DNA of 64,000 nucleotides, taken from positions 200,926 to 264,925 of the forward strand of contig CAZDBO010000001.1 of assembly GCA_964503755.1 (NCBI GenBank), read 5' to 3'. The stretch comes from an uncultured Candidatus Saccharibacteria bacterium (GTDB taxonomy: Bacteria > Patescibacteriota > Dojkabacteria > JAOAGR01). Each line of letters begins with the position of its first letter. Position 1 is the first letter of the stretch. Positions 5,688-58,619 of the stretch are shown here, in pieces. Under the pieces are notes generated by a model. It was not told the DNA's origin and did not search any database. It worked only from the letters and a program-made list of their open reading frames with translations. The translations under genes were made by a program, and so were the position numbers.

Positions 5688-6968
5688 TTACATTTTTATT
5701 ATCATTCCTCTTTGTTTTGTAGGGGTAGTATAAAATTCTATTTCCGAATTTTCAAATTTTTTGGCTAAATCTATCTCTAAATCTAAAACTTGCATTTTAT
5801 TTGTATTACGTGAGTTGATATATAAAGCATTATTGATTATTAATCTAAAAATACGCCCGTTTTTATTTTTCATTCCGGAAAGACAAAAACAGTAAACAAA
5901 ATTCGGGTTACTAAAATTAATAATGGATTGATTTTTTATACCTTCAAAGGTTAAATTATTAAAATGTATAAATTCGACAGTAGGAGTGTTAATGCCAAAT
6001 TTAAGATAATTTTTGTTATCACCAAAAGGAATATTTAGTTTGCCAAACTTTATGATATATTGCTTTTCTGCAACTGTACCATATGATGTAAATCTGTAAG
6101 ATCCGGGTTGTTGTTTTAGTTGTGGATCATAAGCAATACTTGTCCTGCCAAACAGTTTTTTCTTTTCTAAAAAATCTTGCACTTTGTAAATCGATTTTTC
6201 TAACAGAATCCTTTCGGATGAGAAATTTGATAAGAAAAACTCTGTTAGTATCTCCTCTGTTGCTTGAAGTCCAAATACTATATATCGATCCTGCAAATTT
6301 AGTGTTTTCACCTCTTTAGATTTTTTATACAAATCATAATAGTTTCCAATAAATGATAAAAGTTCACTAATTTCCTTTAGAGATGGTAGATAAGATATTG
6401 TATAACTCCAATTTATTATTTGGGGTATAACTATTTTTAAATCAAATTTTGTATATATAAATTCTTCAGTTATGCCACGAGAACTATATAAATATTTAGT
6501 TCCATCTACAACTTCTAAATTATAATCTATACCTACATTTAGTATTTTGGCTGTTTCTTCTATGAGTTTTATTATTTTGAATAAATATTCTGGTTCATAA
6601 ATTGAGTTTGATAATTGTCTATCATTACATATAACAAGAGGATAAAGATTTTTCGATGGTATAAATATCTTTTCGTTATTTTCTAGTGTCAATCTGTTTT
6701 CGTAGGCTGTTTCTATCCATTCATCAATTTTATTTAAATATGTATGATCTACTTCTCCTTCGGAATATTCATGTTCAGGCCATACAATCGTATAAAACCC
6801 CCTTGAATTTTCTTCTATTTCTATTGGATTGTTTAAATGGTGATTTTTATCAATTTTATTATCGAATTGGACTTTATAATATTCGTCATTATAAAGCACA
6901 TAATCAACAATCTGCTTTTTAGAAAGTAGATTCTGTAATTTCTGCGCAAGTTTTTCTGTTAAGTTCAT
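5688..6968 (-). CDS. hypothetical protein (third gene of the PEP-utilising-like operon)
   Basis: 426-aa ORF with a 4-nt ATGA overlap to the upstream gene. No recognisable motif. Confidence 0.5.
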   Translation of the reverse strand: MNLTEKLAQKLQNLLSKKQIVDYVLYNDEYYKVQFDNKIDKNHHLNNPIEIEENSRGFYTIVWPEHEYSEGEVDHTYLNKIDEWIETAYENRLTLENNEKIFIPSKNLYPLVICNDRQLSNSIYEPEYLFKIIKLIEETAKILNVGIDYNLEVVDGTKYLYSSRGITEEFIYTKFDLKIVIPQIINWSYTISYLPSLKEISELLSFIGNYYDLYKKSKEVKTLNLQDRYIVFGLQATEEILTEFFLSNFSSERILLEKSIYKVQDFLEKKKLFGRTSIAYDPQLKQQPGSYRFTSYGTVAEKQYIIKFGKLNIPFGDNKNYLKFGINTPTVEFIHFNNLTFEGIKNQSIINFSNPNFVYCFCLSGMKNKNGRIFRLIINNALYINSRNTNKMQVLDLEIDLAKKFENSEIEFYTTPTKQRGMIIKM

Positions 6969-8026
6969 ATAAGCTTAGCTTTATTCTTTGATACAACAAA
7001 TAATGTAAATTTGTTATCTACAAACATTGATTTTGGAGCTGATTTTAGTATCACGAAATCACGATTTATTGTTTCGATTTGTTCGCCATCAAAAAAAAAT
7101 ACTTCATCTAACATCAGAGTATTGTTTTTTTCTAAATCCCTTGACTCAGATGATATACAAAAAAGTACAGGTGTCTTAATTGAAATTTTATTACATATTT
7201 GATTTAGGTAATCTTTATTGTAAAGGAAATAGGGGCTTTTGAGTTGCTTTAAATTTATAAGTACTTGATCACTTATATTGTCTATATCATAGAATTTTTG
7301 TGAGTCACTAAATATAAGTACTATATAATTATTTACATTTTTTAATGTTGATTTTTTCTTGTTTTTTTGTTTTTTGGGGATATCAATATAAGATAAATGA
7401 GTCTCCAAAGTATATGTCTTATTTTTGATTAAATCAGTATCAATATAGATATTTTTTTTACTAATTAAATTTGAATCTTGATAGATAAAAATTTCTAAAT
7501 ATACGTATGAATTATTGCTTGCCGATACTTGTTTTGAAGATTTTGTAAAATATTGACATAGATTATTCTCGACTACTAATTTATATTCGATGTTGATATT
7601 AGAGTATTTATCTTTAGTGTGATCTATACTTTCAATTAATATCTCTTTTAAATATTCAAAGTCAGATTTATTTATACTTTGATTATTTTGAGACTGTTCT
7701 TCTATATTTATGTAAATATTATTTATATAAACTTGTGATGATTTTTTATAAAATTGATAAATATTTTCACTATATGAATAGAGTCTTTGGGACAAATCTG
7801 CAAGATGTGTTTTGTCTGATTTACCGTTTAGAACAAGGTCTTTATAAACTTTGGTGAGACATATTCGTTCTTTTGTTTTGTGATAAGATCTTATTATGCG
7901 TTTATTTATAGTGTGTAAAGTAAAATTTTCTATTGATTCTACCTTAATGTAAATTTGCTTCTTTTGATTTGATTTAGAACAGGTTTTAATTATGTGAGGC
8001 TTGTGATTGTCATATTGATATATCAT
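6965..8026 (-). CDS. hypothetical Asn/Lys-rich protein (second gene of the operon)
   Basis: 353-aa ORF, same strand, tightly linked to both flanking genes. Confidence 0.5.
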   Translation of the reverse strand: MIYQYDNHKPHIIKTCSKSNQKKQIYIKVESIENFTLHTINKRIIRSYHKTKERICLTKVYKDLVLNGKSDKTHLADLSQRLYSYSENIYQFYKKSSQVYINNIYINIEEQSQNNQSINKSDFEYLKEILIESIDHTKDKYSNINIEYKLVVENNLCQYFTKSSKQVSASNNSYVYLEIFIYQDSNLISKKNIYIDTDLIKNKTYTLETHLSYIDIPKKQKNKKKSTLKNVNNYIVLIFSDSQKFYDIDNISDQVLINLKQLKSPYFLYNKDYLNQICNKISIKTPVLFCISSESRDLEKNNTLMLDEVFFFDGEQIETINRDFVILKSAPKSMFVDNKFTLFVVSKNKAKLI

Positions 8027-8124: not shown

Positions 8125-11019
8125 TTATAATCTTTTGCTTAATTCTCTCTGTTCTAGTTCGCGTAGAATTGTCTTAACAGTATCGCAATTATCCATGCGA
8201 CAGGCTATATGAGTGAAATTATTATTGAAAATATACTCAGCAACTTCACTCGGTTTTTCAAATCCACTTATATCAATTATAGAATTATCTTTTAAACTAT
8301 CTCGCTGTGATAAATATTTAACAAGATTTCTCATACCTTCTACAAATTTAGTTGACGCAGTAAGTTTTTCTACACCAAGCATGTTCATCTTCAACCTGAA
8401 TAGATCATAATAGCGTCCGTCAACAAGAATATTGTCCATAATTTCTTCTAAACGAAAAACGTTGATCATGCGCGATACATTGGCATAGATAAAAAATGTA
8501 GAAGATCTTTTTAATCCAACTTTATTTAATAATTGTTTGGTCTGAACTATATCCTTTTTATTACGATAATCCGGTAAAATAAGCGAAAGATTCTTAAATT
8601 TAGACCTAATATTGTTGTGTATTTGCACTAAAAAGTTAAGCATAACTTGACTTTCGTATGGGGGGCATATAACTAGTACTTTTTTTTCTAAACCTATTAT
8701 TTGTAAATTCTGTAAAAGTAAATTTATGCCTACAGGCATATCTTGGGTAAAAGAAAAAATCGCGCCATCATAATTAGCTAGAGAACGATCGACAACTTCG
8801 TCTATCAGATGAACATATACTTTTGATATTGTAGGCACAAAGTCCAGATATTTTTTATGTCTTTTAGGAGTATTAATTTCATGTATATATGATTCTTCTA
8901 TGTCAAAATTAAATTCTTTACTTTCATTTGATATCTTATTAAGCTCGTAATTTATAGAATCAATGGATGTTGTTGCCTGTTGTGGATTTACTTCACTACT
9001 GGTTCTAACGAGCTTTTGCAAACTATTGGCCCATAGTTTTGTTTGATCAGATTCACTGATTCCTTGTACTACATCTAAATTATTATTTTCTACTACTGTT
9101 TTTTTTTCATCTTCTGTTACATAATTTAATATACTTTCTAGTATACTTTGTTTATCTTCTTTATTTGTTTCTGCTATATAAATAGAGCTCTCAGAAATAT
9201 CTGATTTAACATCCGCCTGAATTATATATTCTTTTTTTGGTTCGACTGGTATAGATAAAGATTCGCCTTCTATACCTTCATGTGTTTGTCGTTCTAATTG
9301 TATTGTAAGGTCAATTTGCGTATTAGGTTCTGTTATTTCAAATGTTTCTTGTGATAAAGAATTTTCATTTGTAACTTTATTTATGTTATCAGTCTTAAGT
9401 CCTTCCGTACTGTTCGATATACTTGATATTTCAATATTATTTGTTGCATTCGGGTCAGAAACGTATATTCCTCCTGTTTGAGGATCAATTCTTATTGGTT
9501 CACCTTCTTTTAATAGTCTATTTGCCAAAGGTGCACCAGTAATAATTGGTATTTTAAAATGTTCATAAAGCCTTATTGCCAATATCTCTGATGGTTCTAC
9601 TATTATAAATCCTCTAACTTTAAGATCAGCTCTAATATCCTCGAAACCTTCAAGGATAAGAATACTATCTTCGCTTGGAGATTCATAATTAAAAGTAGCC
9701 TTTCCCACAACTACTGAATCTCCCCTATAATATCGTCCTTCAATCAAAGGACGTTGTTTAAATATTACATTGTTGTCCATATGATCATAGATTACATTTT
9801 TTTGAAATTCTTTTCTAGTGTTGTTTTCAACAGTAATATTTTCTGCTTTATTTATATAGTTTGATGATAAATTTTCATTTAAATTTGTCGCCACGTCTTG
9901 ATCATCTGTAATGGGCTTAAATATTTGTTGGGGTAATTCAGTTTGTTCAAAATGAATAATAAAACTATTTTGATTTACTTGATCTAAAAATTGATTATGT
10001 TTTGCGCTTAGGGTAATATCTTCTATTTGCTGTGTATCTGATAATTTATCGTCTTCTTGATAATTAATCTCGATTTGTTCTGAGTTTTTATTGTCTCTAA
10101 CTTCGATTTGTTCTGCAGTTTTTTCAGGTATTGCGTTATTAATTTCTATTTCTGTTTCATCTATTTCTGTATCAAATATGATATCCTCAGTACTTTTTTT
10201 AGGTACATAATCTATTTGATTAATGTAATAAATCCATATTTTGCCATTATCTAGCATCCAGTGTATTTCATAATCTCTATGAAGTTCTTCTGAGATGATT
10301 TTTATAGTTTTGGTTAGTGATTTAATATGTTTGTCGTCTATTTTTTGTTTCTTTTGCCAAGCAACAGAAACTTCTATCTGCTTGTATGGTAATGCATCAT
10401 GTCCTCGAATATACATGAATTTTTGTTCTGCAATATGTTTCTCGAGTATTTTTTCTGTATTTTTATTTACGATATAAGTGTCATATTCAATATTTAGATT
10501 GTTAACTGGTATTCCATAAGCAGCCTCGATAAGTATTGTTTCATCAGAATTGTTTAATACATTCTTGGAAAAAGCATATCCAAAAGAATCACAGTTATTT
10601 GATTTTAGTATCAGTATGTTAACTATACTATTTGAATATTGTTTCAAAACATTTGTCTGCATCTCATTAATAACATCTTCTATTGAAAAGATTATCTTTT
10701 GTATACCTTTTACTTGATATGCACATAAATCTTTTATAATCTGATTATTATCATTAGATTTAATAAAAACGAAGATATTGACATATGATTCGGTTAATCC
10801 AGATATTGATTCATATTGGTCAATTATTTCTTTGGAAATTGAGTCTCTAATATGTGAATCAGTAGAATTGCTTGCTAATTTTGTTACTCCACTATGACTT
10901 ATTATAAATCCATTTGGTATAGGTAGTAATTCTTTATATAGATCTGATAATAAAACTGTTAAATCAGTAAAATCTTGGCCTGCTTTGATTTTTTCTTGTA
11001 GACTATATACGTGCTTCAT
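8125..11019 (-). CDS. large PEP-utilising enzyme (PEP synthase/PPDK)-like multidomain protein, probably non-canonical
   Basis: 964 aa. The N-terminus resembles the PPDK/PEPS nucleotide-binding domain (PIPNGFIISHSG...). The central segment resembles the PEP-utilisers mobile domain (...RGFIIVEPSEILAIRLYEHFKIPIITGAPLANRLLKEGEPIRIDPQTGGIYV) but has no His at the phospho-carrier position. The C-terminal roughly 240 aa are TIM-barrel-like. Long E/N/Q/I-rich low-complexity linkers separate the domains. Confidence 0.5.
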   Translation of the reverse strand: MKHVYSLQEKIKAGQDFTDLTVLLSDLYKELLPIPNGFIISHSGVTKLASNSTDSHIRDSISKEIIDQYESISGLTESYVNIFVFIKSNDNNQIIKDLCAYQVKGIQKIIFSIEDVINEMQTNVLKQYSNSIVNILILKSNNCDSFGYAFSKNVLNNSDETILIEAAYGIPVNNLNIEYDTYIVNKNTEKILEKHIAEQKFMYIRGHDALPYKQIEVSVAWQKKQKIDDKHIKSLTKTIKIISEELHRDYEIHWMLDNGKIWIYYINQIDYVPKKSTEDIIFDTEIDETEIEINNAIPEKTAEQIEVRDNKNSEQIEINYQEDDKLSDTQQIEDITLSAKHNQFLDQVNQNSFIIHFEQTELPQQIFKPITDDQDVATNLNENLSSNYINKAENITVENNTRKEFQKNVIYDHMDNNVIFKQRPLIEGRYYRGDSVVVGKATFNYESPSEDSILILEGFEDIRADLKVRGFIIVEPSEILAIRLYEHFKIPIITGAPLANRLLKEGEPIRIDPQTGGIYVSDPNATNNIEISSISNSTEGLKTDNINKVTNENSLSQETFEITEPNTQIDLTIQLERQTHEGIEGESLSIPVEPKKEYIIQADVKSDISESSIYIAETNKEDKQSILESILNYVTEDEKKTVVENNNLDVVQGISESDQTKLWANSLQKLVRTSSEVNPQQATTSIDSINYELNKISNESKEFNFDIEESYIHEINTPKRHKKYLDFVPTISKVYVHLIDEVVDRSLANYDGAIFSFTQDMPVGINLLLQNLQIIGLEKKVLVICPPYESQVMLNFLVQIHNNIRSKFKNLSLILPDYRNKKDIVQTKQLLNKVGLKRSSTFFIYANVSRMINVFRLEEIMDNILVDGRYYDLFRLKMNMLGVEKLTASTKFVEGMRNLVKYLSQRDSLKDNSIIDISGFEKPSEVAEYIFNNNFTHIACRMDNCDTVKTILRELEQRELSKRL

Positions 11020-15814: not shown

Positions 15815-16702
15815 ATGTTTGATCTAATTATACTAAATCCGCTAACTAATTTGTTTATTGGATTGTATTTTCTTTTTTGGGAAAACATTGGCTTAGCTAT
15901 CATTGTATTCACAATTTTAATAAGGATTTTATTGTTGCCATTGAACATACAGCAGATAAAGACTCAACGTAAAATTGCAAAATTACATCCTAAACTTCTA
16001 GAATTACAATCAAAGAAAGATCCAAATAAGCTGACCCTTGATGACATCAATCTTGTAAAAGAAACAACAGTGGGCTTTTTGGGTGGCTGTCTCTTTCTTA
16101 TCTTGCAAATACCAGTGTTCTGGGCTTTGAATGTACTTATTCATGACATTTCTAATGTTAATACCGATGCAAATAAAGGAGGAGATTTTTTTAATAATAG
16201 AATTTATTTTGATTTTTTGAAAAGGGATCATTCATATGTATTTAATACTAATTTTATAGGTATTGATTTGACTTTAATACCATCGCGGTTGGATTTTAAT
16301 CAGTTTTCAACCGTTATTATCATAGTTCTTTCTTTGGTATTTTTATCCCAGTATCTTTCTTCACTTTTAATGTTGCGAATGCAAGATCTAAGTTCTGGAT
16401 TCAATAAAAATCAAAAAAAGAAAAAAGTTAAAAGTAAAGAAGAAAAAGAGCATGAGGAAATGATAGAGATGCAAAAAAAGACAATGAGGTTTCAAATGCT
16501 TTATTTGATACCAGGTATGGTAGTTTTTGGGGCTTATTATTTTAGTTTTGCTTTGTCTTTGTATTGGATTGTACAAAATATACTAGGAATAATTCAGATA
16601 ATACTTCAGTATTCTTATACAAGAGGTAAAATTGATTATGGTAAAATGCAAGAGATACTAGGTTATAAAATAATAAAAAATTTATGGCAGAAGAAAAGTT
16701 AA
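15815..16702 (+). CDS. yidC: membrane protein insertase YidC (short form)
   Basis: 295 aa with ...GLAIIVFTILIRILLLPLNIQQIKTQRKIAKLHPKLLELQ..., the YidC/Oxa1 core. Confidence 0.8.
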   Translation: MFDLIILNPLTNLFIGLYFLFWENIGLAIIVFTILIRILLLPLNIQQIKTQRKIAKLHPKLLELQSKKDPNKLTLDDINLVKETTVGFLGGCLFLILQIPVFWALNVLIHDISNVNTDANKGGDFFNNRIYFDFLKRDHSYVFNTNFIGIDLTLIPSRLDFNQFSTVIIIVLSLVFLSQYLSSLLMLRMQDLSSGFNKNQKKKKVKSKEEKEHEEMIEMQKKTMRFQMLYLIPGMVVFGAYYFSFALSLYWIVQNILGIIQIILQYSYTRGKIDYGKMQEILGYKIIKNLWQKKS

Positions 16703-17172
16703 ATATAGTCAAAGATATAGTCAGCAGATTTTTACAATTACTATTAGAAGAAGGTAAGTATGAATTTGATATACAAGTGCTTTCTCAAAATGAAATAAAA
16801 ATATATATAGGTGGAGAATATTCTGCTTATTTAATAGGTAAGAGGGGAAATACTCTTTTGGCATTACAGCATCTGATAAGACAGATATATATTCAAAATA
16901 CCGGTGACTTTGCTGAAAATATAAAACTAATAATAGATGTAGATGACTACAAAAGAAAAAGAATAGAGAAACTTTATCAGATAGTAGATAAATATATTAG
17001 TGAAAATCATTATAAACAAAGGATACCTTTACCATCAATGAAGGCTTCTGATAGAAAAATTATTCATAATTATGTAACTCAGAAATATCCTCAATACAGT
17101 ACAAAAAGTGAAGGAGAAGAACCGCGAAGGAGAGTAGTTATATTTTTGAACAATGCACAAAATAATCAATAA
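16684..17172 (+). CDS. jag: Jag/KhpB RNA-binding protein (KH-like and R3H domains)
   Basis: 162 aa. Its position immediately after yidC is the classical arrangement, and it has a C-terminal R3H-like segment. Confidence 0.7.
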   Translation: MAEEKLNIVKDIVSRFLQLLLEEGKYEFDIQVLSQNEIKIYIGGEYSAYLIGKRGNTLLALQHLIRQIYIQNTGDFAENIKLIIDVDDYKRKRIEKLYQIVDKYISENHYKQRIPLPSMKASDRKIIHNYVTQKYPQYSTKSEGEEPRRRVVIFLNNAQNNQ

Positions 17173-18664
17173 CATAACACAAAAATTAGTTAATAGTCCA
17201 AAATTTTATCGTTTTTTGGAAATGCTGCCTGGTATTTTATCTCTATTATTTATTTTTTTACCGGTCATATTGGCATTTTTTAATCCTGTATGGGCTGCAT
17301 ATTTTGTGCTTTTATATATGGTTTATTGGACTTATAATAGTATAAAATTTATTGTATACGCATTTATAGCTCATAAAAAAGTTTTAACTGTAAAATCTAT
17401 TGACTGGATTGAAAAACTGAAAAGTGATTATCCGGATGAATGGAATAAATATTATTATGTAGCACTTATTCCTTTTGCTTCAGAATCAATAAATGTATTA
17501 AGGCCTACTGTTCAATCTATAGTAGATAACAACTGGCGAAAAGATCGTAAAATATTATGTTTGTCCTCAGAAAAAGCTATCCCAAAAGGAAAACAAGTTG
17601 CTGAAGAGCTTAGAGAAATTTTTAAGTATGAATTTGCATATATTTTTATCACAGAACACGAATTAAAAGAGGGAGAATTAAAGGGAAAAGCAGCTAACCA
17701 AAATCATGCGGCTAGATTTTTATATGATGAATTAATCAAGATCGGCCTAGACCCAAAATATGTTTTATTAACAAGTAATGATGCGGATGTTAGAAATGAT
17801 AAAGAATATATCCCGTATTTGATACACAAATTCTTATGCGAAGGTGATGAACGCTACTACCGTATTTATCAACCTATACCAACAGATTATTCTGATTTCT
17901 GGGATGCAAAATTTTTTTCTCGTTTAATTGTATCGATAGGGGCAAATTGGAGACTGGCCTTGCAGCAAAGAGATAATTATCGCTGTACTGTTTATTCTTT
18001 TTATTCGATGAGCTTGTATACTTTAAAAGAGATTGGATTTTGGGATGTTGATCTTATACCGGAGGATGAACGTACGATGTTTAAGGCTTTATTTCGTTTT
18101 GGTGAAAAATTTAAAGTTGTGCCATTATTTATTAATACTTATGGTAATCCTGTTCAAGCTGATTCATTTTGGAAAGCAGCGAAAGAACAGTACATACAAG
18201 TTCGTCGTTGGGCTTGGGGAGCATCAGAGTTTGCTTATTCGTTTACTCATGCATTAAAAAACACACATGTTTCTTGGAGGGTAAAACTTTTACCTATACT
18301 CAATCAGCTACGTACAGCGGTAGAATGGTCTTCATCGTCTATATTGCCATTGCTTGGAGGATACATACCAGGGCTTTTCAGTCAAGAATTTAGACTAACC
18401 ACATTAAATCATTATTTAGGACCAACCATTGTTTTACTTATTCAGTTAGCTTCCTTATTGGTCTTGATGATTGTTTATATAGAGTATCAATTGATACCCA
18501 AGAGTGATAATACCAAAGGTATTATGAGATTCTTAAAGTATATTCACTGGATACTAATGCCTTATGTTGGTTTGATTTTTAGTTCTATACCTGCTTTAGA
18601 CGCTCAGATAAAACTACTTTTGAATAAACGTATAGTTTATGTTGAAAGTAAAAAAGAAAAGTGA
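17153..18664 (+). CDS. integral-membrane processive family-2 glycosyltransferase (cellulose/chitin/hyaluronan synthase-like)
   Basis: 503 aa. TM helices flank a GT domain with a DxD-like TSNDAD, an ED motif (PEDERTMF) and the Q-x-x-R-W signature (QVRRWAWG). It ends with a TGA stop. Confidence 0.65.
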   Translation: MHKIINNITQKLVNSPKFYRFLEMLPGILSLLFIFLPVILAFFNPVWAAYFVLLYMVYWTYNSIKFIVYAFIAHKKVLTVKSIDWIEKLKSDYPDEWNKYYYVALIPFASESINVLRPTVQSIVDNNWRKDRKILCLSSEKAIPKGKQVAEELREIFKYEFAYIFITEHELKEGELKGKAANQNHAARFLYDELIKIGLDPKYVLLTSNDADVRNDKEYIPYLIHKFLCEGDERYYRIYQPIPTDYSDFWDAKFFSRLIVSIGANWRLALQQRDNYRCTVYSFYSMSLYTLKEIGFWDVDLIPEDERTMFKALFRFGEKFKVVPLFINTYGNPVQADSFWKAAKEQYIQVRRWAWGASEFAYSFTHALKNTHVSWRVKLLPILNQLRTAVEWSSSSILPLLGGYIPGLFSQEFRLTTLNHYLGPTIVLLIQLASLLVLMIVYIEYQLIPKSDNTKGIMRFLKYIHWILMPYVGLIFSSIPALDAQIKLLLNKRIVYVESKKEK

Positions 18665-23832: not shown

Positions 23833-24384
23833 ATGACTAATATGTCAAATCAAAACAAATTAAAACAAATAATATTTACTTTAATAATTTCTACTTTTTT
23901 ATTTGCTTTTGTCGCATATCCAGTAAATGCTCAACTTGCTAATGTTTTTCCAACACCATTCGGCGGAGACGGTAGATTGGATTTAGGTGCTATAGTTACT
24001 TTCTTTTTTAATATTGTGCTTTATGTAGCTTTGCTCTGGGCTGTATGGCATATTGTTTTGGCTGGCTTTACTATAACTAAAGCCAAAGATAATGCAGACG
24101 AGAGGAAGAAGGGTATAGATGCTATAATCAACGCTGTAATAGGTTTGGTGGTTGCTTTATTGGCTTTTGTCATAGTTAGCGTTGTTACAAATTTCTTAGG
24201 CGTAAGTGTTTATCAGCTTGAAATATCATCTGTACCTTGTACTGGAAGAACAGCTAATGGTGAAGTATTTCCTGGTTTCCACCCTCAGGGACAAAATGGT
24301 ATAGATTATAATACCTGTGCAACTAAGGATGGGAGAAAAACAGGTTCTGTAATACGTGGTGGTACGTCTATACCTAGACCATAA
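23833..24384 (+). CDS. secreted two-helix hairpin membrane protein, paralogue C
   Basis: 183 aa. Signal peptide (...PVNA/QL), helix 1, the loop TKAKDNADERKKG (identical core motif to paralogue B), helix 2, and a Cys-containing C-terminal tail. Confidence 0.6.
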   Translation: MTNMSNQNKLKQIIFTLIISTFLFAFVAYPVNAQLANVFPTPFGGDGRLDLGAIVTFFFNIVLYVALLWAVWHIVLAGFTITKAKDNADERKKGIDAIINAVIGLVVALLAFVIVSVVTNFLGVSVYQLEISSVPCTGRTANGEVFPGFHPQGQNGIDYNTCATKDGRKTGSVIRGGTSIPRP

Positions 24385-24431
24385 TGTTATATATTTACAT
24401 AACGTAAAATTTATTAATTGATTATTACTTT

Positions 24432-24508
24432 GAGCCATTAGCTCAGTTGGTTAGAGCACGGTGCTTATAACGCCGGGGTCGCTGGTTCAAATCCAGCATG
24501 GCTCACCA
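24432..24508 (+). tRNA. tRNA-Ile with anticodon TAT (UAU); body resembles tRNA-Ile2
   Basis: Acceptor GAGCCAT/ATGGCTC, D-arm TAGCTCAGTTGGTTAGAGC, anticodon stem CGGTG/CGCCG with loop CTTATAA, T-arm GCTGGTTCAAATCCAGC, then CCA. Confidence 0.75.
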
Positions 24509-24588
24509 CTATATTTAGTGGTTATTTATTTTATTCGATTATTTAAAATTTTAATTTATAGAAATATTCGGGTTTGTAATCATATTTT

Positions 24589-25134
24589 GTGTTATATTGT
24601 TTTATGACTGGATCTAATGTTCAATTTCTAGAATACTCACGTAGTACAAAAAAAAATGAATTTAACTTTAGATTTTTACCATCCAGTGACTTGTTGGATT
24701 CCAAATATTTTGAAAAAATAGATAAAGTTAGATGTATTGCTCTGGATACATCAAATAGAGTTTGTTTGGTTTCTTACAATGGAAGATATTGGATGTTGCC
24801 AGGTGGAACAATAGAAAATAACGAAAATCCCATATTAGCTCTCAAACGTGAGCTTAGAGAAGAAGCGGATATTGATATTTACAACTACGAACTGTTGGGA
24901 TTTTTGGAAAAGGCTATATTTAGCAAAAAATATTTTAAATACTCCAAGCATGTTGAGATGATTTTTATAGCAAGAGTTGCTAAAGAGTATCCTCAGACAC
25001 CTGATCCAGCTATAGGAATGACACTTAAGCGTGCTTATTTTGATTACAAAACCGCATTGCCAAAATATATGAAATTATCAAAAATTAATGATTACATTAT
25101 AAAATACATAGATAGCTACATAAAGGAAAAATAA
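24589..25134 (+). CDS. NUDIX hydrolase
   Basis: Nudix box ...LPGGTIENNENPILALKRELREEADIDI... Confidence 0.75.
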   Translation: MLYCFMTGSNVQFLEYSRSTKKNEFNFRFLPSSDLLDSKYFEKIDKVRCIALDTSNRVCLVSYNGRYWMLPGGTIENNENPILALKRELREEADIDIYNYELLGFLEKAIFSKKYFKYSKHVEMIFIARVAKEYPQTPDPAIGMTLKRAYFDYKTALPKYMKLSKINDYIIKYIDSYIKEK

Positions 25135-25135
25135 T

Positions 25136-25924
25136 ATGGCAGGACATTCGAAATGGGCCCAAATAAAAAGAAAAAAAGCAGCGAATGATGCTCAGAAAGC
25201 AAAAGAATTTACTAGAGTTTCACGCCTAATTACTCTTGCAGTTCAGCAAGGTGGACCGGATCCAGAATTTAATTCTTCCTTGGCATTCGCAATAGAAAAA
25301 GCACGTGAAATAAATCTACCGAAAGACAATATAGAACGTTCAATAAAAAGAGGACTGGGTAGCTCAAATGAAGGAAAATTGGAGACTATTGTTTATGAAG
25401 CATATTCGCCTGACAAGGTAGCGATCCTTATATTTTGCACTACTGATAACAAAAGTCGTACTTTGGGAGAGATACGATCAATTGTTGAAAAAAATGGGGG
25501 GACTTTTGCTTCAGCTGGATCTGTTAGTTGGCAATTTGATACTGTGGGTTTTATTTTTGTACCATTTGGAGAAAATAATAATGATGAAAAAAGTTGGAAT
25601 AAAGTCGGTGAAAAAAGGTATTTAGAAAAAAATAGCGCAGAAAAGTTTGTACTAGCTTTAATGGAGTATAATGGTATTTTAGATATATCTATATTAGATG
25701 ATGGAGTACAAATAATAACAGATTTTCAATCTTTGAATGAAACTAGAAACAATATAATTAAGCAACATGGATTCTATATTGATACTGCAGAGGAAAATCG
25801 TACACCAAATGTAACTATTGGGATAAATAAAGAACAGTTTGATAGATTAGAGGGTCTTATAGAAAAATTAGAGATGCACGATGATGTACAGAAAGTATGG
25901 CATAATGGAGTGTTGGTTGAATAA
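25136..25924 (+). CDS. yebC: YebC/PmpR family DNA-binding transcriptional regulator
   Basis: 262 aa, MAGHSKWAQIKRKKAANDAQKAKEFTRVSRLITLAVQQGG... Confidence 0.88.
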   Translation: MAGHSKWAQIKRKKAANDAQKAKEFTRVSRLITLAVQQGGPDPEFNSSLAFAIEKAREINLPKDNIERSIKRGLGSSNEGKLETIVYEAYSPDKVAILIFCTTDNKSRTLGEIRSIVEKNGGTFASAGSVSWQFDTVGFIFVPFGENNNDEKSWNKVGEKRYLEKNSAEKFVLALMEYNGILDISILDDGVQIITDFQSLNETRNNIIKQHGFYIDTAEENRTPNVTIGINKEQFDRLEGLIEKLEMHDDVQKVWHNGVLVE

Positions 25925-26186
25925 GCTTTTGCCGAACAAAAATCTAAAATTTTTATAGCATTGTATTTATATTTTCTAAATATTCTTTGATTCTTGATCT
26001 TTCAAGATTTCTTCATTTTCTAATTTTTAAATTATATTAAATATCATGCGAAATCATACATTAGCAGTAGATTTTTATTTAATCTATAAATAAAGGATTA
26101 TTGGACTAATAAGGTACTAATTTAGATTGTTTTAGTGGATCAATGAATTATTATAATTACTACAAAATTTATTGTCTCTCGAAAAT

Positions 26187-33453: not shown

Positions 33454-35391
33454 TTATGAAGCTATTAGTGTCATAAATTCGTCCTGTTCGATAACTTCTT
33501 TTTCTAAAAGTGTTTGCGCTATCTTATCTAGTTTTTCACGATTTTTGATGATTATTTCTTCTGCAGTTTTTCTTGCTTTTTCAAGAATTTTTGCTATTTC
33601 TTCATCAATTTTTTTTGCTGTTTCTTGAGAATAAGTTAGATGTCCGATGTCGTCATGACTATATTCTACGTATCCCAAGCTACTCATCCCGTATTTTTTC
33701 ACCATATCAGAGGCAATTTGTGTGGCTCTTTTTATGTCACTACTAGCTCCTGTTGTGAAAGTGTTAAATACAATTCTTTCTGCTTCACGGCCTCCGTACA
33801 AACTTGCAAGATCTGCTTCAAATTTTTCTATTGTTCTTAGAGAATATGCTTCTTCATCAGGTATAAAAATAGTAGCTCCACCCGAGTCTCCTCTTGGAAT
33901 TATAGAAATACGGTGTACAATATCGGCTTCTGGTAAATGATAGCTTACCAAGGCATGCCCTGCTTCATGATATGCAACTATCTTTTTGTACTTTTCTGAT
34001 TTAGTTCGATTTTTTGCTGGTCCTAAAATAACTTTGTTGATAGCTTCTTCTATATCTTCTTTTTCTATTGTTTGTCGATCATGTTTGGCCGCTATTATCG
34101 CTGCTTCGTTTAAAACATTTTCCAAATCAGCACCACTATATCCAATAGTTCTTTTGGCTAAAGTTTCTAAATCTATCTCATGACTTAAAGGCTTATTTTT
34201 TGCGTATATTTTTAGAATTTCTAATCTACCATTCATATCTGGAAGATCTAATACAACTCTTCTATCAAATCTACCTGGTCTAAGTATTGCAGGATCTAGT
34301 ACATCTGGCCTATTAGTTGCAGCTATTACTATCACATTTGTATCTTTCTGAAAACCATCCATTTCGACAAGAATTTGATTTAAAGTTTGATCTGTATTTC
34401 CTGAGTGTATTATTGTTCCTCTTTTTTTGGCTATAGAATCAATTTCGTCTATAAAAATAATTGATGGTGCCATCTTTTTTGCTTTCGTGAAAAGATCTCG
34501 AACTCTAGATGCTCCTGCTCCTACAAGCATCTCTTCAAATTCTGATCCTGATGTAAAAAAGAATGGTACGCCAGCTTCACCTGCAATTGCTCTTGCTAGT
34601 AGTGTTTTTCCTGTTCCAGGAGCACCGACAAGTAGTACGCCTTTCGGAATCCTTGCACCCATTTTGATAAATTTTTTAGGATTCTTAAGGAATTCAACTA
34701 TTTCTCTAACTTCATTTACAGCTTCGTCTACACCTTTTACATCGTCAAATTTGACATCCTGCATTTTTGCGGTAAATAATTTGGCTTTACTTTCACCAAA
34801 AGGCAAACTTGCAGCTGAATTTGAGATGTTTTTTGCTGAGTATATTATATAAATGATAAAGCCTAATATACCTAATGTGCTAATAAGGGATATTATGGAA
34901 AAAAGATTGAATTCACTTGCAGGTACAGCATAAATATTTTTTTGGGTAGGATCTATACCAGCTTTTCTTAGATCTTCAAAAAAAGTTATCGTATTGGGTA
35001 TATTTCCTTCTATTTTTTGATTATCATTTTTAGTTATAACAACTTTTTCAGGATGCACCTCGACTTTAGAGTATTCTTCTTTCTTAATAACTTCTATGAT
35101 TGTGCCGTAATCTAGATTGTTTAAGCTGTTGATATTATAAATTTGTAATCCAATTGTAAAAACAAACAAAATTATTACAGTAATAATGATAGGATTTTTG
35201 TACCAAGGTACATTCTTTTTGAATGGACGGATGATATTAGATTCTGTTGTTTTACCTTGCTTAGTTTCTGGATCTGTATTTGGTTCTTGAGTAGGATTTT
35301 TTCTTTGATTACTAACCTTAAAATATTTTTCTTCTACAGATTCTGGTAGACCCGAATTTGGCTTGCGTATATTTTTATTTTTAAGTTTCAT
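33454..35391 (-). CDS. ftsH: ATP-dependent zinc metalloprotease FtsH
   Basis: 645 aa with N-terminal TM helices, the AAA module [18 protein letters not shown], and HEAGHALV. Confidence 0.92.
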
Positions 35392-35471
35392 CGTATTTTG
35401 TTATTTTAGCATATGGGACAGATGCTTATACATTTTATTGCCACAAATATTGTAAAGACATATAATTAGTT

Positions 35472-37610
35472 ATGTACAAACTTTCTACTTTTTTGTTAAG
35501 TTTGTTTATTATTATGGGATCTATATTTTTGGATGTTGTAAATTCGAAGATAGCAGCAGAAGAAAACAGCAGTGCACATAAAAAGATTTCTATAATAGAA
35601 ATTAATTGGGCGGGTAGTAAAAGATCATCAAATGATGAATGGATAGTACTTAAAAATCTTACAGATGAGGATATTGATATCACAGGATATAAACTTTTTG
35701 GTACACGACGTGGAGGGGGGTATTTTGAGTTGACTGGGATTGTAAGAGCGAACGATGTATTCGTTGTTAGTAGATATAATCGGAGCGATCCTAATACAGT
35801 AATTAATGTGAATTCTAATTTTGTTAGCTCTTCTTTTTCTATTTCAAATGCAGCTTTAAATATAAGGTTAGACGATTCTAATGGTCAAATTGTAGATAGT
35901 GTAATAACTACTACCAAGCCAAAGGTAGGGGATAATTCTTCAACTTCTGGTACGTATTTTGCCATGAGTAGGATTAATCCATTTAATGATGGAAATGATC
36001 TAAATAATTGGAGGAATGCAGATAAAATTTATGTGGTGCAAATAGTTGAAGATGGTGTTTGTAGAAATTATATTGGTTATTCTGAACTTATTGGAAAGGA
36101 ATTTATTGATCCAACTGATTTGTGCGAAGGAAATACAATAAGTCCAAATGAGACGATAAATTTAGAGTTTTACACTCAAACTAATAGTTTAGAAATCCAA
36201 ATAAATGAAAATACATTAAGTTCCGATAACATCAATACAAATTTGTTTAGTGTAACAGTAAATAGTATGTTTGGCAGTACGAATGTTGTTGATAGTATAG
36301 ACTATGTAAATGCAAGATATTTATCGCAAAATTCTAGTATTTTCGCGTATCGTTTCAACGACTATATGGGATCTGAATACTATAAAGTTTCTACTCAAAT
36401 TAAAAATATAAGTAATTTTGAATGTTTAATAGATAAATTAGATTTTTTTGTAGATACAAATGTAATTAATCAAAGACTTTTGATTAATCAGTTTAATATA
36501 CATGAAAATGTTAATAATTATCAAAATAACATGTTTAGTCTTTTAGGAAATGATGAATATATCGAATCTATAACGCCTATTAATCAGATAATAAAGGATC
36601 AAGATCTAATGATTTACATTGATAATCTAAACTTAGAAAACTACAACTCAGGTTTTATAGAAATTGGTACTCAAAGAATTCCATTGGTTCAGTTTGTAAA
36701 TAACAATAAAGTGACATTAAATAATGTCAGTACAAATAAATTAATTCTAGATCTAAAACAAGATGAGTTGGCAAGTTTTGCTACTATAAATATCGAATTA
36801 GTAGGTCCAAATTATATTGGCGATTTACCATTTGATGTTAGCGAATACATAAATTCAGAAGTTACCACAGAAATGATTAATAACACAATTAAGTTTACAA
36901 ATGAAAATTATTCTCATATTTTAACATTTGAAAAAAATAACCTTTGTGATAATTATTTTGCAAATATTTGTAATATTAGTTTAGTATTTAGATTGGAAGA
37001 AAACACCCTATCATCAGATCAAAATATCCTAAAAATAAAGTATGGTACGACCGATCATAAAGTATTTAACGAAAAAATATTTAGATTTGCTGATTTTAAT
37101 CAAAATCAGATAGAAATTAACTTTTCGTTTACAGAAAATATAAATAAACTGCAGATATATTCTTATAAGCCAATTTATTTAATACAATATCGAAAATTCT
37201 TGTCTAACCAACCTAATAATCTCTTTGAAACTGATTTTGAGAGTATTGAAGGACTAAATATAAGTCAAGGATATGAAAATTCTACTACCGAGATGAGATG
37301 TAGACCCGTTTATTTTGATATGATTTATTTGACTCCAGATTCGTCTTATATCACATCGGTCAACATAAATGGATTATCAAAATATCGTAATTATAGTTTG
37401 GTCAAAGTATATTTATTTGATAATCAAGGTAAAGTAATGTTAGATGAAAAAATTACAGAATCCGAACTTAGAAATGGAAAATACGAAACAGTTCCGGTTT
37501 TGATTGATAATAATTTAAGATCTTATATTTATTTAGTACAAATTTGTGATTATTCTAATCAAAGCGTACCTTACTGGGATAATATAGAAATTCAGTTTAC
37601 AAAAAAATGA
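35472..37610 (+). CDS. large secreted protein with an N-terminal lamin-tail-domain (LTD)-like module
   Basis: 712 aa with a signal peptide and ...ISIIEINWAGSKRSSNDEWIVLKNLTDEDIDITGYKLFG..., resembling the LTD consensus (INE..., EWIEL.N, DLSGW.L). The rest is Asn-rich and unrecognised. Confidence 0.5.
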   Translation: MYKLSTFLLSLFIIMGSIFLDVVNSKIAAEENSSAHKKISIIEINWAGSKRSSNDEWIVLKNLTDEDIDITGYKLFGTRRGGGYFELTGIVRANDVFVVSRYNRSDPNTVINVNSNFVSSSFSISNAALNIRLDDSNGQIVDSVITTTKPKVGDNSSTSGTYFAMSRINPFNDGNDLNNWRNADKIYVVQIVEDGVCRNYIGYSELIGKEFIDPTDLCEGNTISPNETINLEFYTQTNSLEIQINENTLSSDNINTNLFSVTVNSMFGSTNVVDSIDYVNARYLSQNSSIFAYRFNDYMGSEYYKVSTQIKNISNFECLIDKLDFFVDTNVINQRLLINQFNIHENVNNYQNNMFSLLGNDEYIESITPINQIIKDQDLMIYIDNLNLENYNSGFIEIGTQRIPLVQFVNNNKVTLNNVSTNKLILDLKQDELASFATINIELVGPNYIGDLPFDVSEYINSEVTTEMINNTIKFTNENYSHILTFEKNNLCDNYFANICNISLVFRLEENTLSSDQNILKIKYGTTDHKVFNEKIFRFADFNQNQIEINFSFTENINKLQIYSYKPIYLIQYRKFLSNQPNNLFETDFESIEGLNISQGYENSTTEMRCRPVYFDMIYLTPDSSYITSVNINGLSKYRNYSLVKVYLFDNQGKVMLDEKITESELRNGKYETVPVLIDNNLRSYIYLVQICDYSNQSVPYWDNIEIQFTKK

Positions 37611-37633
37611 GTTTTATTGTATTATTGTTTTAC

Positions 37634-37709
37634 GCGAGTGTAGTTCAGTTGGTAGAACGTCTCCTTGCCAAGGAGAAGGCCGGCGGTTCGAGTCCGCTCA
37701 CTCGCTCCA
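37634..37709 (+). tRNA. tRNA-Gly (anticodon GCC)
   Basis: Acceptor GCGAGTG/CACTCGC, anticodon stem TCTCC/GGAGA with loop TTGCCAA, T-loop GGTTCGAGTCC, then CCA. Confidence 0.9.
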
Positions 37710-47788: not shown

Positions 47789-48769
47789 ATGATTGATGAT
47801 AGTCCTGTTTTGTATCAATTTTATGAAAGAGATGGTAAATATAACAGATATATAGGCGAAATCTACAATATACAACTTAAAGGTTCAAATATAAACCCTA
47901 TACAAATTTCGGGAACTTTGTTTCTTTTTATACAATCAAAAGATTTTGATATATCATACAATCCAAATGGTGTTGGTTTAATGAATAGTTGTGGCAGTTA
48001 TACTTTGTTTTTGGAAGGTTTGGGAAATATAGAGTTAGAATGCAGTGAATCAAATATAGAATTAAGTGATGAATATAAAAATCGGTTGATAAGTGAAAAT
48101 AAAAGTTTTCATACCTATAAGATTAAAACAGATATAAGTACTAGATTAGGATACAAATCTGCTGATATTTATATATATCCAAAATCTTATGAGGCTGAAA
48201 AGAAATTAGAAGAAAAAAAGATAAAATTAAGATTATTAAATACAACTGAGGCTAAAAAGTTCGATGAAAAATATAGAGATATAATTCATGTATATAATGC
48301 CAATATTAATCCAATTTCTACGTATATATCTAAAGAAAAATTAAGGACAAATTTAGTATTTAAAGAAGATTTTAACGCATTTTTTAGTAAATTTTTTGAA
48401 TCTAACGATAACCAAAAAAACTGCTACGCATTTTTTGATAATGTCAATAAATTTGATGCAACATTGTTTAATATATTAGAAGTTCGCGATATCGAAAGGT
48501 ATTTTCTAAAGTGTGCCGCTGGTATATTTAATGGTTATCATTTAACGTTGCAAGATAAACAAAATGAAAAAGATCGTTTTGAAGTCTATGTGATTAACTC
48601 AAATGAAAAGACGGAGAAAATTATAAACTTTTATATCAATTCTGATTTGTATAAAAGAGATGAGAAGATAAGAGGTATGGAATATAAAAAATTTGGCGAT
48701 ATATACATATTTATTTATAGTGAAGATGCAAAGGATAAAGTAATCGATGTTTTGATAATATTCAGTTAG
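47789..48769 (+). CDS. hypothetical cytoplasmic protein
   Basis: 326-aa ORF with no signal peptide and no recognised motif. It may be the 3' part of a longer disrupted gene (see findings). Confidence 0.4.
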   Translation: MIDDSPVLYQFYERDGKYNRYIGEIYNIQLKGSNINPIQISGTLFLFIQSKDFDISYNPNGVGLMNSCGSYTLFLEGLGNIELECSESNIELSDEYKNRLISENKSFHTYKIKTDISTRLGYKSADIYIYPKSYEAEKKLEEKKIKLRLLNTTEAKKFDEKYRDIIHVYNANINPISTYISKEKLRTNLVFKEDFNAFFSKFFESNDNQKNCYAFFDNVNKFDATLFNILEVRDIERYFLKCAAGIFNGYHLTLQDKQNEKDRFEVYVINSNEKTEKIINFYINSDLYKRDEKIRGMEYKKFGDIYIFIYSEDAKDKVIDVLIIFS

Positions 48770-52562: not shown

Positions 52563-53396
52563 GTGTGTAGAGAGTCGAGTAATCGTATTGACTTAGAGAA
52601 AAGCAATTTACATTTTGTGAAAAAATCCGCAGGCCAGATCACCCATAAATTTGTAAAAAGAGTTAATGAAAAGGACGCAAGTTATCAATATGTAATTGAT
52701 CCTTATCCGTACTATAATGTTTTACTCTATAACCTATTTCAAGAATATGCTTATGTTTATGTAAATGATGATGAGACGACAATCGATAATAGTGCCAATA
52801 AAATTATTGTAAAGACTAATGTCGATGATATGGAAGTCGTTTATGATAATCCAAAGGTTTTTCAAAGCAATAATGAAGAGGCAGAAAAATATTTTGATAT
52901 GATAATAAACGAACTACTAAGGCAAGATGCTATCATTAAAGTTGAAAATAATTATATTTTTAATATAACTGAATTTGTAAAAAAATATCCAGTTCTAGTA
53001 CTACAGGGTCAATTTAAAGAATTTGGATACTACAGTGATTTTAAAAGAGGCGTGGTAAATTTAACTTATGAAAATTCTGGTAGATCTGTTAGGATTATTT
53101 CAGAATTCTATAATTCTGGTAGCCAAGGAAATGTAAATGTAAATTGTTCTGAAGCGAACGGTACAAATCAAATAAAAATAAATGATAAATCATATGAAGC
53201 TATTGTTTGTAGAGGTGATAAAATAGCGGGTAATGTCGTAAAAGTAATAGGTGTGAATGGATATGATATATATATTCAAGCCGTTGATTACTCTATGAAT
53301 CCTGACGAAAAGATTTCTGTTGATCTAATGTCAAGAGAGTTTAGATTTATGACGATAGATGAGGCACCGCAATATGAGATGAAGGTACGAGAATAA
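52563..53396 (+). CDS. C-terminal part of the same probable frameshifted gene (hypothetical)
   Basis: This frame is open from 52359, about 200 nt upstream of the first start codon. The upstream in-frame translation looks protein-like (DKYDVNPFLTRLDLAREIDVTDYEENF...). Confidence 0.4.
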   Translation: MCRESSNRIDLEKSNLHFVKKSAGQITHKFVKRVNEKDASYQYVIDPYPYYNVLLYNLFQEYAYVYVNDDETTIDNSANKIIVKTNVDDMEVVYDNPKVFQSNNEEAEKYFDMIINELLRQDAIIKVENNYIFNITEFVKKYPVLVLQGQFKEFGYYSDFKRGVVNLTYENSGRSVRIISEFYNSGSQGNVNVNCSEANGTNQIKINDKSYEAIVCRGDKIAGNVVKVIGVNGYDIYIQAVDYSMNPDEKISVDLMSREFRFMTIDEAPQYEMKVRE

Positions 53397-55109: not shown

Positions 55110-55895
55110 ATGGAAAACAGCACGGTACAAAATCAATTTTTTCAAACTGCATCAAATAATTCGGATGTGCAAAATGTTATTAATCCAGCAGTAAACGAAA
55201 TAAGAAAGAAAATAAAACAAGCCTTACTTATTGGAATACTAATTGTCTTAATACTTTCTGGGGTAGTTGCTGCATTCCTGGTTGCTGTATCTGCCCAAGT
55301 TAATGTAATTACGAGAACATTTACTTTTATATTCAACTTAATATTTCATTTAGCGGTAGCTTTAATCTTAATATGGGATGAAAAAAATAATATCTTGAAT
55401 AGTCGTTTTCAAGCGTTAATGATCACCATTTTTTTTAGTGTTATAGTCAACTTTTTTAATTTTTCTATACCAATATTTTTTGAGGAATATAAATACATGG
55501 GATCCGTCTTTATATCGTTAGTTACTACAGTTGGTCTAGTCAGCGTTTTGGAGTTTATTTATAGAGTTTTAGGTAAAAGTATGTATGTTGATGTGTCTTT
55601 GTATTCGACATCGTTCTTTTTGATTCTATCTTATTTTATGGTTTTACCGCTTTACTTTGAGCCTGATATAATACTTCAAGTTTTTAATAGGTACGGAAAT
55701 GTATTATTAGCTCTTTTAATTTTGATGTCAGTCTCTACATTTTCTGCAGTTGTTTTGTACAGAATATATCTAAACAAAAATCCTCAAGCATCGCAAGAAA
55801 AAATGTTTACTTCGGATGTACAATTACTAATTTCATTAGCTATAGTTATATTTGTGTTTGTATTTTGTATTACTTCCTCTATAGTTGCTTTTTAA
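55110..55895 (+). CDS. hypothetical polytopic membrane protein
   Basis: 261 aa with about 6 TM helices. Confidence 0.42.
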   Translation: MENSTVQNQFFQTASNNSDVQNVINPAVNEIRKKIKQALLIGILIVLILSGVVAAFLVAVSAQVNVITRTFTFIFNLIFHLAVALILIWDEKNNILNSRFQALMITIFFSVIVNFFNFSIPIFFEEYKYMGSVFISLVTTVGLVSVLEFIYRVLGKSMYVDVSLYSTSFFLILSYFMVLPLYFEPDIILQVFNRYGNVLLALLILMSVSTFSAVVLYRIYLNKNPQASQEKMFTSDVQLLISLAIVIFVFVFCITSSIVAF

Positions 55896-57608: not shown

Positions 57609-58619
57609 ATGTCATCAGAAACGATCAAAACATATCAAAAAAAGGCATCGGTAGAATTTATAGATATTCTTTTTTATGTTTCGGCTGTCATTATCTCAAT
57701 TGGTACTTTCGTTTTTATTAATCAAACGCTAAATTTGTTTATCAGACTTTCTATTACTACTTTTATAGCGATAATACCTTTGCTTTTTGTTTTGTTCGTA
57801 AAGTTTAGAAAAATTGAACAGTTTTACAGATTAGCAAATCCTCTTTTATTGGTACATGTGCTTGTAGGTACTGCTACTTTATACGCATGGTATGAACCAA
57901 TTAATGCCTTGTCTTTAATGTTTTTTGAACGTGATTTATTATATATCTATTACATTCTGTTTGCTTCTCTGATTTTAGGAGCGTGGTTTTGGTTTTTGTC
58001 TAAAGTTCTGAATGGAAACCAAATACTTATATACTTCACTATTATTACTCTTCCTGTTACATATATTTCGTTTATACAGTCTTATTTAGAATTATTACAA
58101 AGTTGGCTAGGTATAATCTATCCTTTTTTAGATTCAAGGTATCATCATTTTTATTCATTTTTTGTTTTAACTATTGGTTTAGTTATATTTTCTATATCAA
58201 ATTACCTTTTAAATTTAGGTGAGAAATTTCGTATATTAACATATTTTGTTAGGATAAGTGGTTTAGTCGCTATATATTTTACATTTGTCTCATTTACAGC
58301 GTATTTTGCTTATAACGATTTACTTCATTTCTTTTTATTGATTTTTAATTACATTATGGTTTTGTTCTTTTTTTATTATTTCAATCGAATCAGAGCAGTT
58401 GATGGATATATATTAGCATCTTTATATTTGGTTGGTTTGATTAATTATTCGATATTTTATTTGGTTTACGAATTTGATTTAATGTTTGGAAGAGATTATA
58501 TAGGTCCTCTTCTTTTTATAGCGTCTGGCGTATCTTTGCTTATAGTATCAGTTGTTGGGTATTATTTTTGGAATAAAGATAAAAATGCTATAAATATAGA
58601 ATCTAATGTTTCTAATTAA
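57609..58619 (+). CDS. hypothetical polytopic membrane protein
   Basis: 336 aa with about 9 TM helices. Confidence 0.42.
   Translation: MSSETIKTYQKKASVEFIDILFYVSAVIISIGTFVFINQTLNLFIRLSITTFIAIIPLLFVLFVKFRKIEQFYRLANPLLLVHVLVGTATLYAWYEPINALSLMFFERDLLYIYYILFASLILGAWFWFLSKVLNGNQILIYFTIITLPVTYISFIQSYLELLQSWLGIIYPFLDSRYHHFYSFFVLTIGLVIFSISNYLLNLGEKFRILTYFVRISGLVAIYFTFVSFTAYFAYNDLLHFFLLIFNYIMVLFFFYYFNRIRAVDGYILASLYLVGLINYSIFYLVYEFDLMFGRDYIGPLLFIASGVSLLIVSVVGYYFWNKDKNAINIESNVSN

Follow-up and report, generated by a model that had tools for sequence, protein, structure and literature searches.

In bacteria the separation of AUA (isoleucine) from AUG (methionine) is a classic decoding problem, and bacteria are described as nearly always using lysidine for it. 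The 64-kb stretch of DNA that was analysed here, referred to below as the window, contains a tRNA-Ile gene whose anticodon is already TAT in the DNA. We asked what this gene is, what AUA means in the organism that carries it and whether lysidine is likely to have any part in reading that codon. As set out below, we conclude from the sequence and its relatives that the gene is very probably a functional, vertically inherited Dojkabacteria tRNA-Ile(UAU), derived from an Ile2-type tRNA with T34 in place of C34, and that it would serve as at least the main decoder of AUA.

An earlier note on this DNA had described a tRNA-Ile whose UAU anticodon is written in the genome itself and had quoted its D-arm, its T-arm and the anticodon loop CTTATAA. 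The letters are exactly as quoted there, and ARAGORN, run on the window, returned a tRNA-Ile with anticodon TAT at the same coordinates as the earlier note (Table 1). The Rfam model RF00005 matched the gene over model positions 1-71 of 71 with a score of 70.4 bits (gathering score 29; E = 2.5e-13), and the cloverleaf is the minimum-free-energy fold. The full sequence of the gene, 77 nt, is GAGCCATTAGCTCAGTTGGTTAGAGCACGGTGCTTATAACGCCGGGGTCGCTGGTTCAAATCCAGCATGGCTCACCA. Its acceptor stem (GAGCCAT/ATGGCTC) contains the pairs C4-G69 and C5-G68 and is followed by the discriminator A73, the D-stem (GCTC/GAGC) includes U12-A23, the anticodon stem (CGGTG/CGCCG) includes U30.G40 and G31-C39, and the T-stem is GCTGG/CCAGC.

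Table 1. Coordinates of the features discussed in the text; positions refer to the window unless another contig is named.
Feature	Coordinates	Strand	Evidence or remark
tRNA-Ile(UAU) gene with genomically encoded 3' CCA	24432-24508	+	ARAGORN (tRNA-Ile, anticodon tat, exactly these coordinates); Rfam RF00005; fold
Anticodon TAT (U34 A35 U36)	24466-24468	+	Sequence; ARAGORN places the anticodon at gene position 35
Anticodon loop CTTATAA	24464-24470	+	A37 and A38 after the anticodon
Terminator-like hairpin ACCACTATATTTAGTGGT followed by T-rich tail TATTTATTTT	24505-24532	+	Consensus match; overlaps the encoded CCA
Block of about 25 nt, TATTTTGTGTTATATTGTTTTATG, just upstream of the NUDIX start	24560-24603		
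Three tandem T4SS_pilin (PF18895) paralogs of 141, 191 and 183 aa	22519-24384	+	Immediately upstream of the tRNA gene
503-aa ORF after yidC-jag (15815-17172)	17153-18664	+	No Pfam match
Sizeable ORFs, up to 886 aa	49303-51963, 47789-48769, 52563-53396, 55110-55895, 57609-58619	+	No Pfam family at E <= 0.001
Sizeable ORF	6965-8026	-	No Pfam family at E <= 0.001
964-aa ORF	8125-11019	-	PPDK_N ATP-binding domain (PF01326) matches a stretch of about 120 residues only
LTD-domain gene (about 710-750 aa) and tRNA-Gly(gcc) adjoining ftsH	33454-37709; L070 7472-11902; L071 7498-11914		
tRNA-Ile(tat) and tRNA-Val(gac)	L040 2919-3094; L043 3769-3934		Gap of 15-22 nt
tRNA-Ile(tat) and tRNA-Val(gac)	L008 416-1077		Gap of about 510 nt

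We searched 5,426 complete genomes of E. coli with the gene. The best matches were annotated as tRNA-Ile, and the two that were inspected, ileX of K-12 and BHT24_RS10785, carry a CAT anticodon. The T-stem is identical between the window tRNA and both of these genes. The E. coli CAT variant also has the D-arm of the window gene, TAGCTCAGTTGGTTAGAGC, and in ileX-type genes the D-arm is as in the window gene save one extra base in the D-loop. Further features shared with the ileX/ileY tRNA-Ile2(CAU) are C4-G69/C5-G68, A73, A37 and A38. By these comparisons the body of the window tRNA is Ile2-like, with ileX-type genes as its closest E. coli relatives, which bears out the description of the body in the earlier note. 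The two differ at position 34, since in E. coli tRNA-Ile2(CAU) C34 is converted to lysidine by TilS, whereas the window gene has T34 and the substrate base of TilS is absent. The elements that we take to be recognized by E. coli IleRS (A35, U36, A37, A38, A73, C4-G69, U12-A23 and C29-G41) are all there except C29-G41, which is here G29-C41. Both C4-G69 and C5-G68, presumably the acceptor-stem determinants of E. coli tRNA-Ile2 for TilS, are retained.

To judge from its relatives, the window comes from a distinct species related to SKW36 in the class Dojkabacteria (CPR/Patescibacteria). The nearest genome in the species-representative collection is the MAG of Candidatus Dojkabacteria bacterium SKW36 (contig JAOAGR010000002.1, here L027), and the best homologs of YebC and FtsH are likewise named Dojkabacteria at NCBI. 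L027 and the window are syntenic, with a nucleotide identity of about 82% in the flanking genes, and all 77 nt of the tRNA, including T34 and the CCA, are 100% identical, while the intergenic DNA directly on either side is scrambled between the two and much of it barely aligns. A third species, represented by L067 (Logan contig SRR24079437_30084; YebC 92% identical), carries the tRNA at the equivalent site with a single change, T to A in the D-loop, and an unaltered anticodon arm. The gene order 3' of the tRNA (NUDIX, YebC, photolyase, MreB, L1, L11, nth, class II synthetase, ftsH) is kept in L067, and L027 keeps its first part, from the tRNA through L11. Full identity of the tRNA amid diverged flanks in L027, together with the single change in L067, indicates clear purifying selection and argues that the gene is functional. 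We also found a Logan contig, L001 (run SRR11582145), that is 100% identical to window positions 24177-26065. Since this contig is independent, and since two related species also have TAT, T34 is not an assembly error; it occurs in four independent assemblies from three species.

A metagenome scan with YebC returned five relatives at 33-53% identity with no tRNA-Ile near yebC in any of them, the only tRNA in these five loci being a tRNA-Ala about 3.6 kb downstream in L061. L068 and L069 (YebC 45-48% identical) are no longer syntenic with the window and contain no Ile tRNA.

Immediately 3' of the tRNA lies the hairpin listed in Table 1, which we regard as a putative terminator. A scan with the terminator consensus found one site against 0.3 expected from shuffled sequences. 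In L067 the sequence 3' of the tRNA differs, yet a hairpin, CCATGTTTTTGCATGG, can form there, as judged by eye. Just upstream of the NUDIX start, the block TATTTTGTGTTATATTGTTTTATG is perfectly kept in L027, in a spacer that has otherwise changed, and probably serves NUDIX-yebC as a promoter or ribosome-binding region.

In 49 ORFs of the window (18,471 codons) we counted 1973 Ile codons, made up of 941 ATA, 773 ATT and 259 ATC, next to 255 ATG. No other Ile codon is as frequent there as ATA (47.7% of Ile codons, or 50.9 per 1000 codons), and ATA is not avoided in the genes for L1, L11, enolase and MreB. For comparison, Borrelia burgdorferi, with 39 AUA per 1000, lies at the upper end of the bacteria compared in one study (PMC12514573). 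GC content is about 30% across the window, and the expectation of an AT-rich genome with abundant AUA codons is thus borne out by the counts.

We also examined what AUA means, using a Codetta-style check on alignments in which the window FtsH and YebC were each set against about 60 homologs. At the 50 AUA positions the homologs have isoleucine in 44%, valine in 18% and leucine in 15%, and at the 34 AUU positions the corresponding figures are 48%, 19% and 14%. At the 11 AUG positions methionine accounts for 39% of homolog residues, and at the AUA columns of FtsH and YebC it is outside the six commonest residues. Because the AUA columns match the AUU profile, with Ile, Val and Leu in homologs, these alignments indicate that AUA is isoleucine in the source organism. 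No in-frame TGA was found among the 49 window ORFs, and TAA (38), TGA (6) and TAG (5) are all used as stops, so that the code is a standard one.

Both strands of the window are crowded with housekeeping genes, including those for PNPase, MreB, MurG, YidC, a ClpB/ClpC-type AAA+ chaperone, GatB, FtsH, enolase, the ribosomal proteins L1, L11 and L7/L12, and ThrRS, CysRS and two more class II synthetases. Several sizeable ORFs match no Pfam family or match one over a short stretch (Table 1). One of them follows yidC-jag. In many bacteria this is the place of mnmE, a U34-modification gene, and mnmE is absent from this position in the window.

We looked for the components of the lysidine system. No ORF among the 49 of the window matched the TilS family (PF01171) in Pfam, and tblastn with E. 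coli TilS, run on the window and on related loci that total about 0.5 Mb, gave no match at E <= 0.01. The same search with E. coli IleRS found no ileS in the window or these loci, with one chance-level match (E = 0.7). ARAGORN and Rfam found four tRNAs in the window (Asp-gtc, Ile-tat, Gly-gcc and Ser-gga) and no tRNA with a CAT anticodon. In related Peribacteria loci six CAT tRNAs were found, and all six are initiators with the C1:A72 mismatch. No tilS adjoins ftsH, either in the window or in the near-complete Dojkabacteria genomes AP026679.1 and JAEDZT01. Going by the 0.72-0.74 Mb contigs of related MAGs, the source genome is probably several hundred kb or more, so that these searches covered a fraction of it, and the related loci likewise represent a small part of any one genome.

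A divergently transcribed LTD-domain gene, upstream of ftsH, and tRNA-Gly(gcc) adjoin ftsH in the window and in the Dojkabacteria contigs L070 and L071 (Table 1). Since the FtsH proteins of the latter are only 58-61% identical to that of the window, the arrangement of LTD gene, tRNA-Gly and ftsH is a class-level synteny.

Among named taxa with a TAT gene, more are without tilS than with it (PMC3575796, PMC8450103). Because known TAT taxa mostly lack tilS and the genome is of a reduced kind, our prior expectation leans towards loss of both tilS and tRNA-Ile2(CAU) from the source genome as well. In the same measure, lysidine-independent decoding of AUA in this organism is plausible and would be our moderate preference.

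How should the gene then be read? One possibility is that it is a pseudo-tRNA, or that position 34 was misread in sequencing or assembly. Apart from the fact that bacteria rarely have a TAT tRNA-Ile gene, nothing speaks for this; an Rfam score of 70.4 bits, T34 in four assemblies from three species, the gene in L027, perfectly conserved amid diverged flanks, and the copy in L067 with its one D-loop change refute it, and we give it practically no weight. It is likewise very improbable that the tRNA was acquired horizontally on a mobile element or phage and supplements codon usage. Three T4SS-pilin-like genes do lie directly upstream; however, the neighbours are housekeeping genes, no integrase was seen beside the tRNA gene, and the order from the tRNA to ftsH is kept in L067 and as far as L11 in L027. 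A phage collection contained no similar DNA, and the best phage tRNA matches were generic, at 81-85%. With synteny in three species and no close phage relative, a mobile or phage origin was rejected. Another reading would be that AUA has lost its isoleucine meaning and that the UAU tRNA serves the reassigned codon. AUA is methionine in some mitochondria, and codon reassignment is known in some CPR lineages (UGA in Gracilibacteria), which lends this idea some general footing, but the FtsH and YebC columns contradict it, as AUA there behaves like AUU with Met not among the top six residues, and the tRNA body is of the Ile type. We consider reassignment of AUA to have next to no chance of being correct.

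A stronger contender is that the genome has retained tilS and tRNA-Ile2(CAU), and that the UAU tRNA is an extra duplicate, changed from C34 to T, that helps with abundant AUA codons. Taniguchi et al. proposed such redundancy as a transitional state, and a TAT gene and tilS do coexist in some bacteria (PMC3575796). The window gene has kept C4-G69 and C5-G68, the pairs that we take to be TilS determinants, and a tRNA-Ile2(CAU) with tilS could sit elsewhere in the genome and share the decoding of AUA. Against this, neither a CAU-type tRNA nor a PP-loop/TilS ORF occurs in the 64-kb window or the roughly 0.5 Mb of related loci, the named TAT taxa without tilS outnumber those with it (PMC3575796, PMC8450103), and the lineage has reduced genomes. 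We regard redundancy as a possibility to be taken seriously, though somewhat improbable. If tilS is present, the locus is a case of routine redundancy.

Our preferred reading is a functional, vertically inherited tRNA-Ile(UAU), and the decoding it implies would run as follows. The primary transcript already bears UAU and could read AUA, after IleRS has presumably charged it with isoleucine. U34 would pair with the A of AUA, so that TilS and lysidine would be unneeded for this tRNA. Since wobble pairing of U34 with G is possible too, discrimination against AUG would have to come from elsewhere. Its source would lie outside the window, for example in an IleRS and a ribosome adapted as they are in Mycoplasma mobile, or in an IleRS of the type that Bifidobacterium and Neorickettsia have; alternatively, a modification of U34 could provide it.

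Bacterial tRNA-Ile(UAU) is already known, as in Mycoplasma mobile, Bifidobacterium and Neorickettsia, and by its sequence the window gene belongs to this group of tRNA-Ile genes with a genomically encoded UAU. In M. mobile it has been demonstrated experimentally that tilS is absent, that U34 is unmodified, that IleRS has Arg865, at the position of E. coli Trp905, and that the ribosome rejects AUG (PMC3575796). The window organism resembles M. mobile in an encoded UAU, an Ile2-type body, an AT-rich reduced genome and AUA as isoleucine. In contrast to M. mobile, a member of the Mollicutes, it is a CPR Dojkabacteria lineage, with standard use of stop codons and no in-frame TGA. In Bifidobacterium and Neorickettsia a tRNA-Ile3(UAU) replaces tRNA-Ile2(CAU), tilS is missing and IleRS is of the eukaryote type (PMC3575796; PMC8450103); the TAT tRNA-Ile gene is shared with the window organism, whereas the loss of tilS and the eukaryote-type IleRS are established features of theirs. 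Lactobacillus casei, Cyanothece PCC 7424 and Ferrimonas balearica have tilS and a TAT gene together (PMC3575796), and here too the TAT gene is the point of likeness while a demonstrable tilS is theirs. Since AUA takes the largest share of Ile codons in the window, it is improbable that the UAU tRNA has a minor, supplementary role.

To see how widely such genes occur, we scanned 185,579 species, with one genome each, for a pattern made up of the window D-arm, CTTATAA, GGTC and the T-loop GGTTCAAATCC. This restrictive pattern found TAT tRNA-Ile in at least 56 species genomes, which is a lower bound given how narrow the pattern is, and nearly all of them are labelled as CPR. Labels of Peribacteria, Peregrinibacteria or Peribacteraceae account for 46 of the 56; the other ten are Portnoybacteria (1), Saccharibacteria (1), Dojkabacteria (1), "Patescibacteria group" (2), Gammaproteobacteria-labelled MAGs (3) and further MAGs (2). 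The literature describes few cases: tRNADB-CE has TAT tRNA-Ile genes for 19 bacterial species (PMC4013482), a tRNAscan-SE 2.0 analysis gives them for 17 genomes, of Bifidobacterium, Mycoplasma and Neorickettsia (PMC8450103), and a 2026 preprint calls UAU tRNA-Ile rare in bacteria (bioRxiv 10.64898/2026.02.03.703510). The statement in the earlier note that only a minority of bacteria decode AUA in this way therefore agrees with the literature, but within the CPR such genes look much less rare. Our literature searches found no paper tying CPR, Patescibacteria, Peribacteria or Dojkabacteria to tilS, lysidine or UAU tRNA-Ile. New in the present case are the host lineage, Dojkabacteria of the CPR, an AUA load that is very high, and an abundance of TAT genes in Peribacteria and other CPR that appears to be undescribed.

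The TAT genes are not all of one kind. A73 and C4-G69 are common to all 57 that were parsed, and the stems vary among them, giving several body types, of which the window type occurs only in the three Dojkabacteria relatives. The genes of the other CPR groups (Peribacteria/Peregrinibacteria, Portnoybacteria and Saccharibacteria) have the D-arm, T-loop, CTTATAA, A73 and C4-G69 as in the window gene, whereas their acceptor, anticodon and T stems are unlike it. This comparison suggests that the window type and the other CPR TAT genes probably arose separately. In 47 of the 57 genes, those of the Peribacteria type, the 31-39 pair is non-Watson-Crick (A.A in 36 and A.G in 11), where the window type has G31-C39. 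This mismatch, which closes the anticodon loop, could matter for tuning a U34 anticodon.

We put forward tentatively a broader and more doubtful proposal. The present clade of Dojkabacteria, and with it other large groups of the CPR such as Peribacteria, might have dropped TilS and lysidine altogether, with a U34 tRNA as the sole reader of AUA and an AUG-fidelity mechanism as yet undescribed in bacteria. Candidates for the latter would be a new U34 modification or a CPR-specific adaptation of IleRS or the ribosome. If this were true, lysidine-free decoding of AUA would be widespread within a major radiation of bacteria and would extend beyond a handful of exceptions. If tilS is truly absent, the CPR would also be a broad natural setting in which to study how AUG escapes misreading by a U34 tRNA when AUA codons are so numerous, and would be informative on the co-evolution of IleRS with such a tRNA.

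Some observations on the individual loci were made along the way. The three MAGs labelled "uncultured Gammaproteobacteria" (L011, L040 and L055) carry a CPR-like TAT tRNA-Ile. L040 has 32% GC and a tRNA array, and the Gammaproteobacteria labels of all three may be wrong. Three MAGs, one of them labelled Portnoybacteria, have tRNA-Val(gac) next to tRNA-Ile(tat), a recurrent pairing with the spacings given in Table 1. One of these contigs, L008, has 11 tRNAs within 8 kb.
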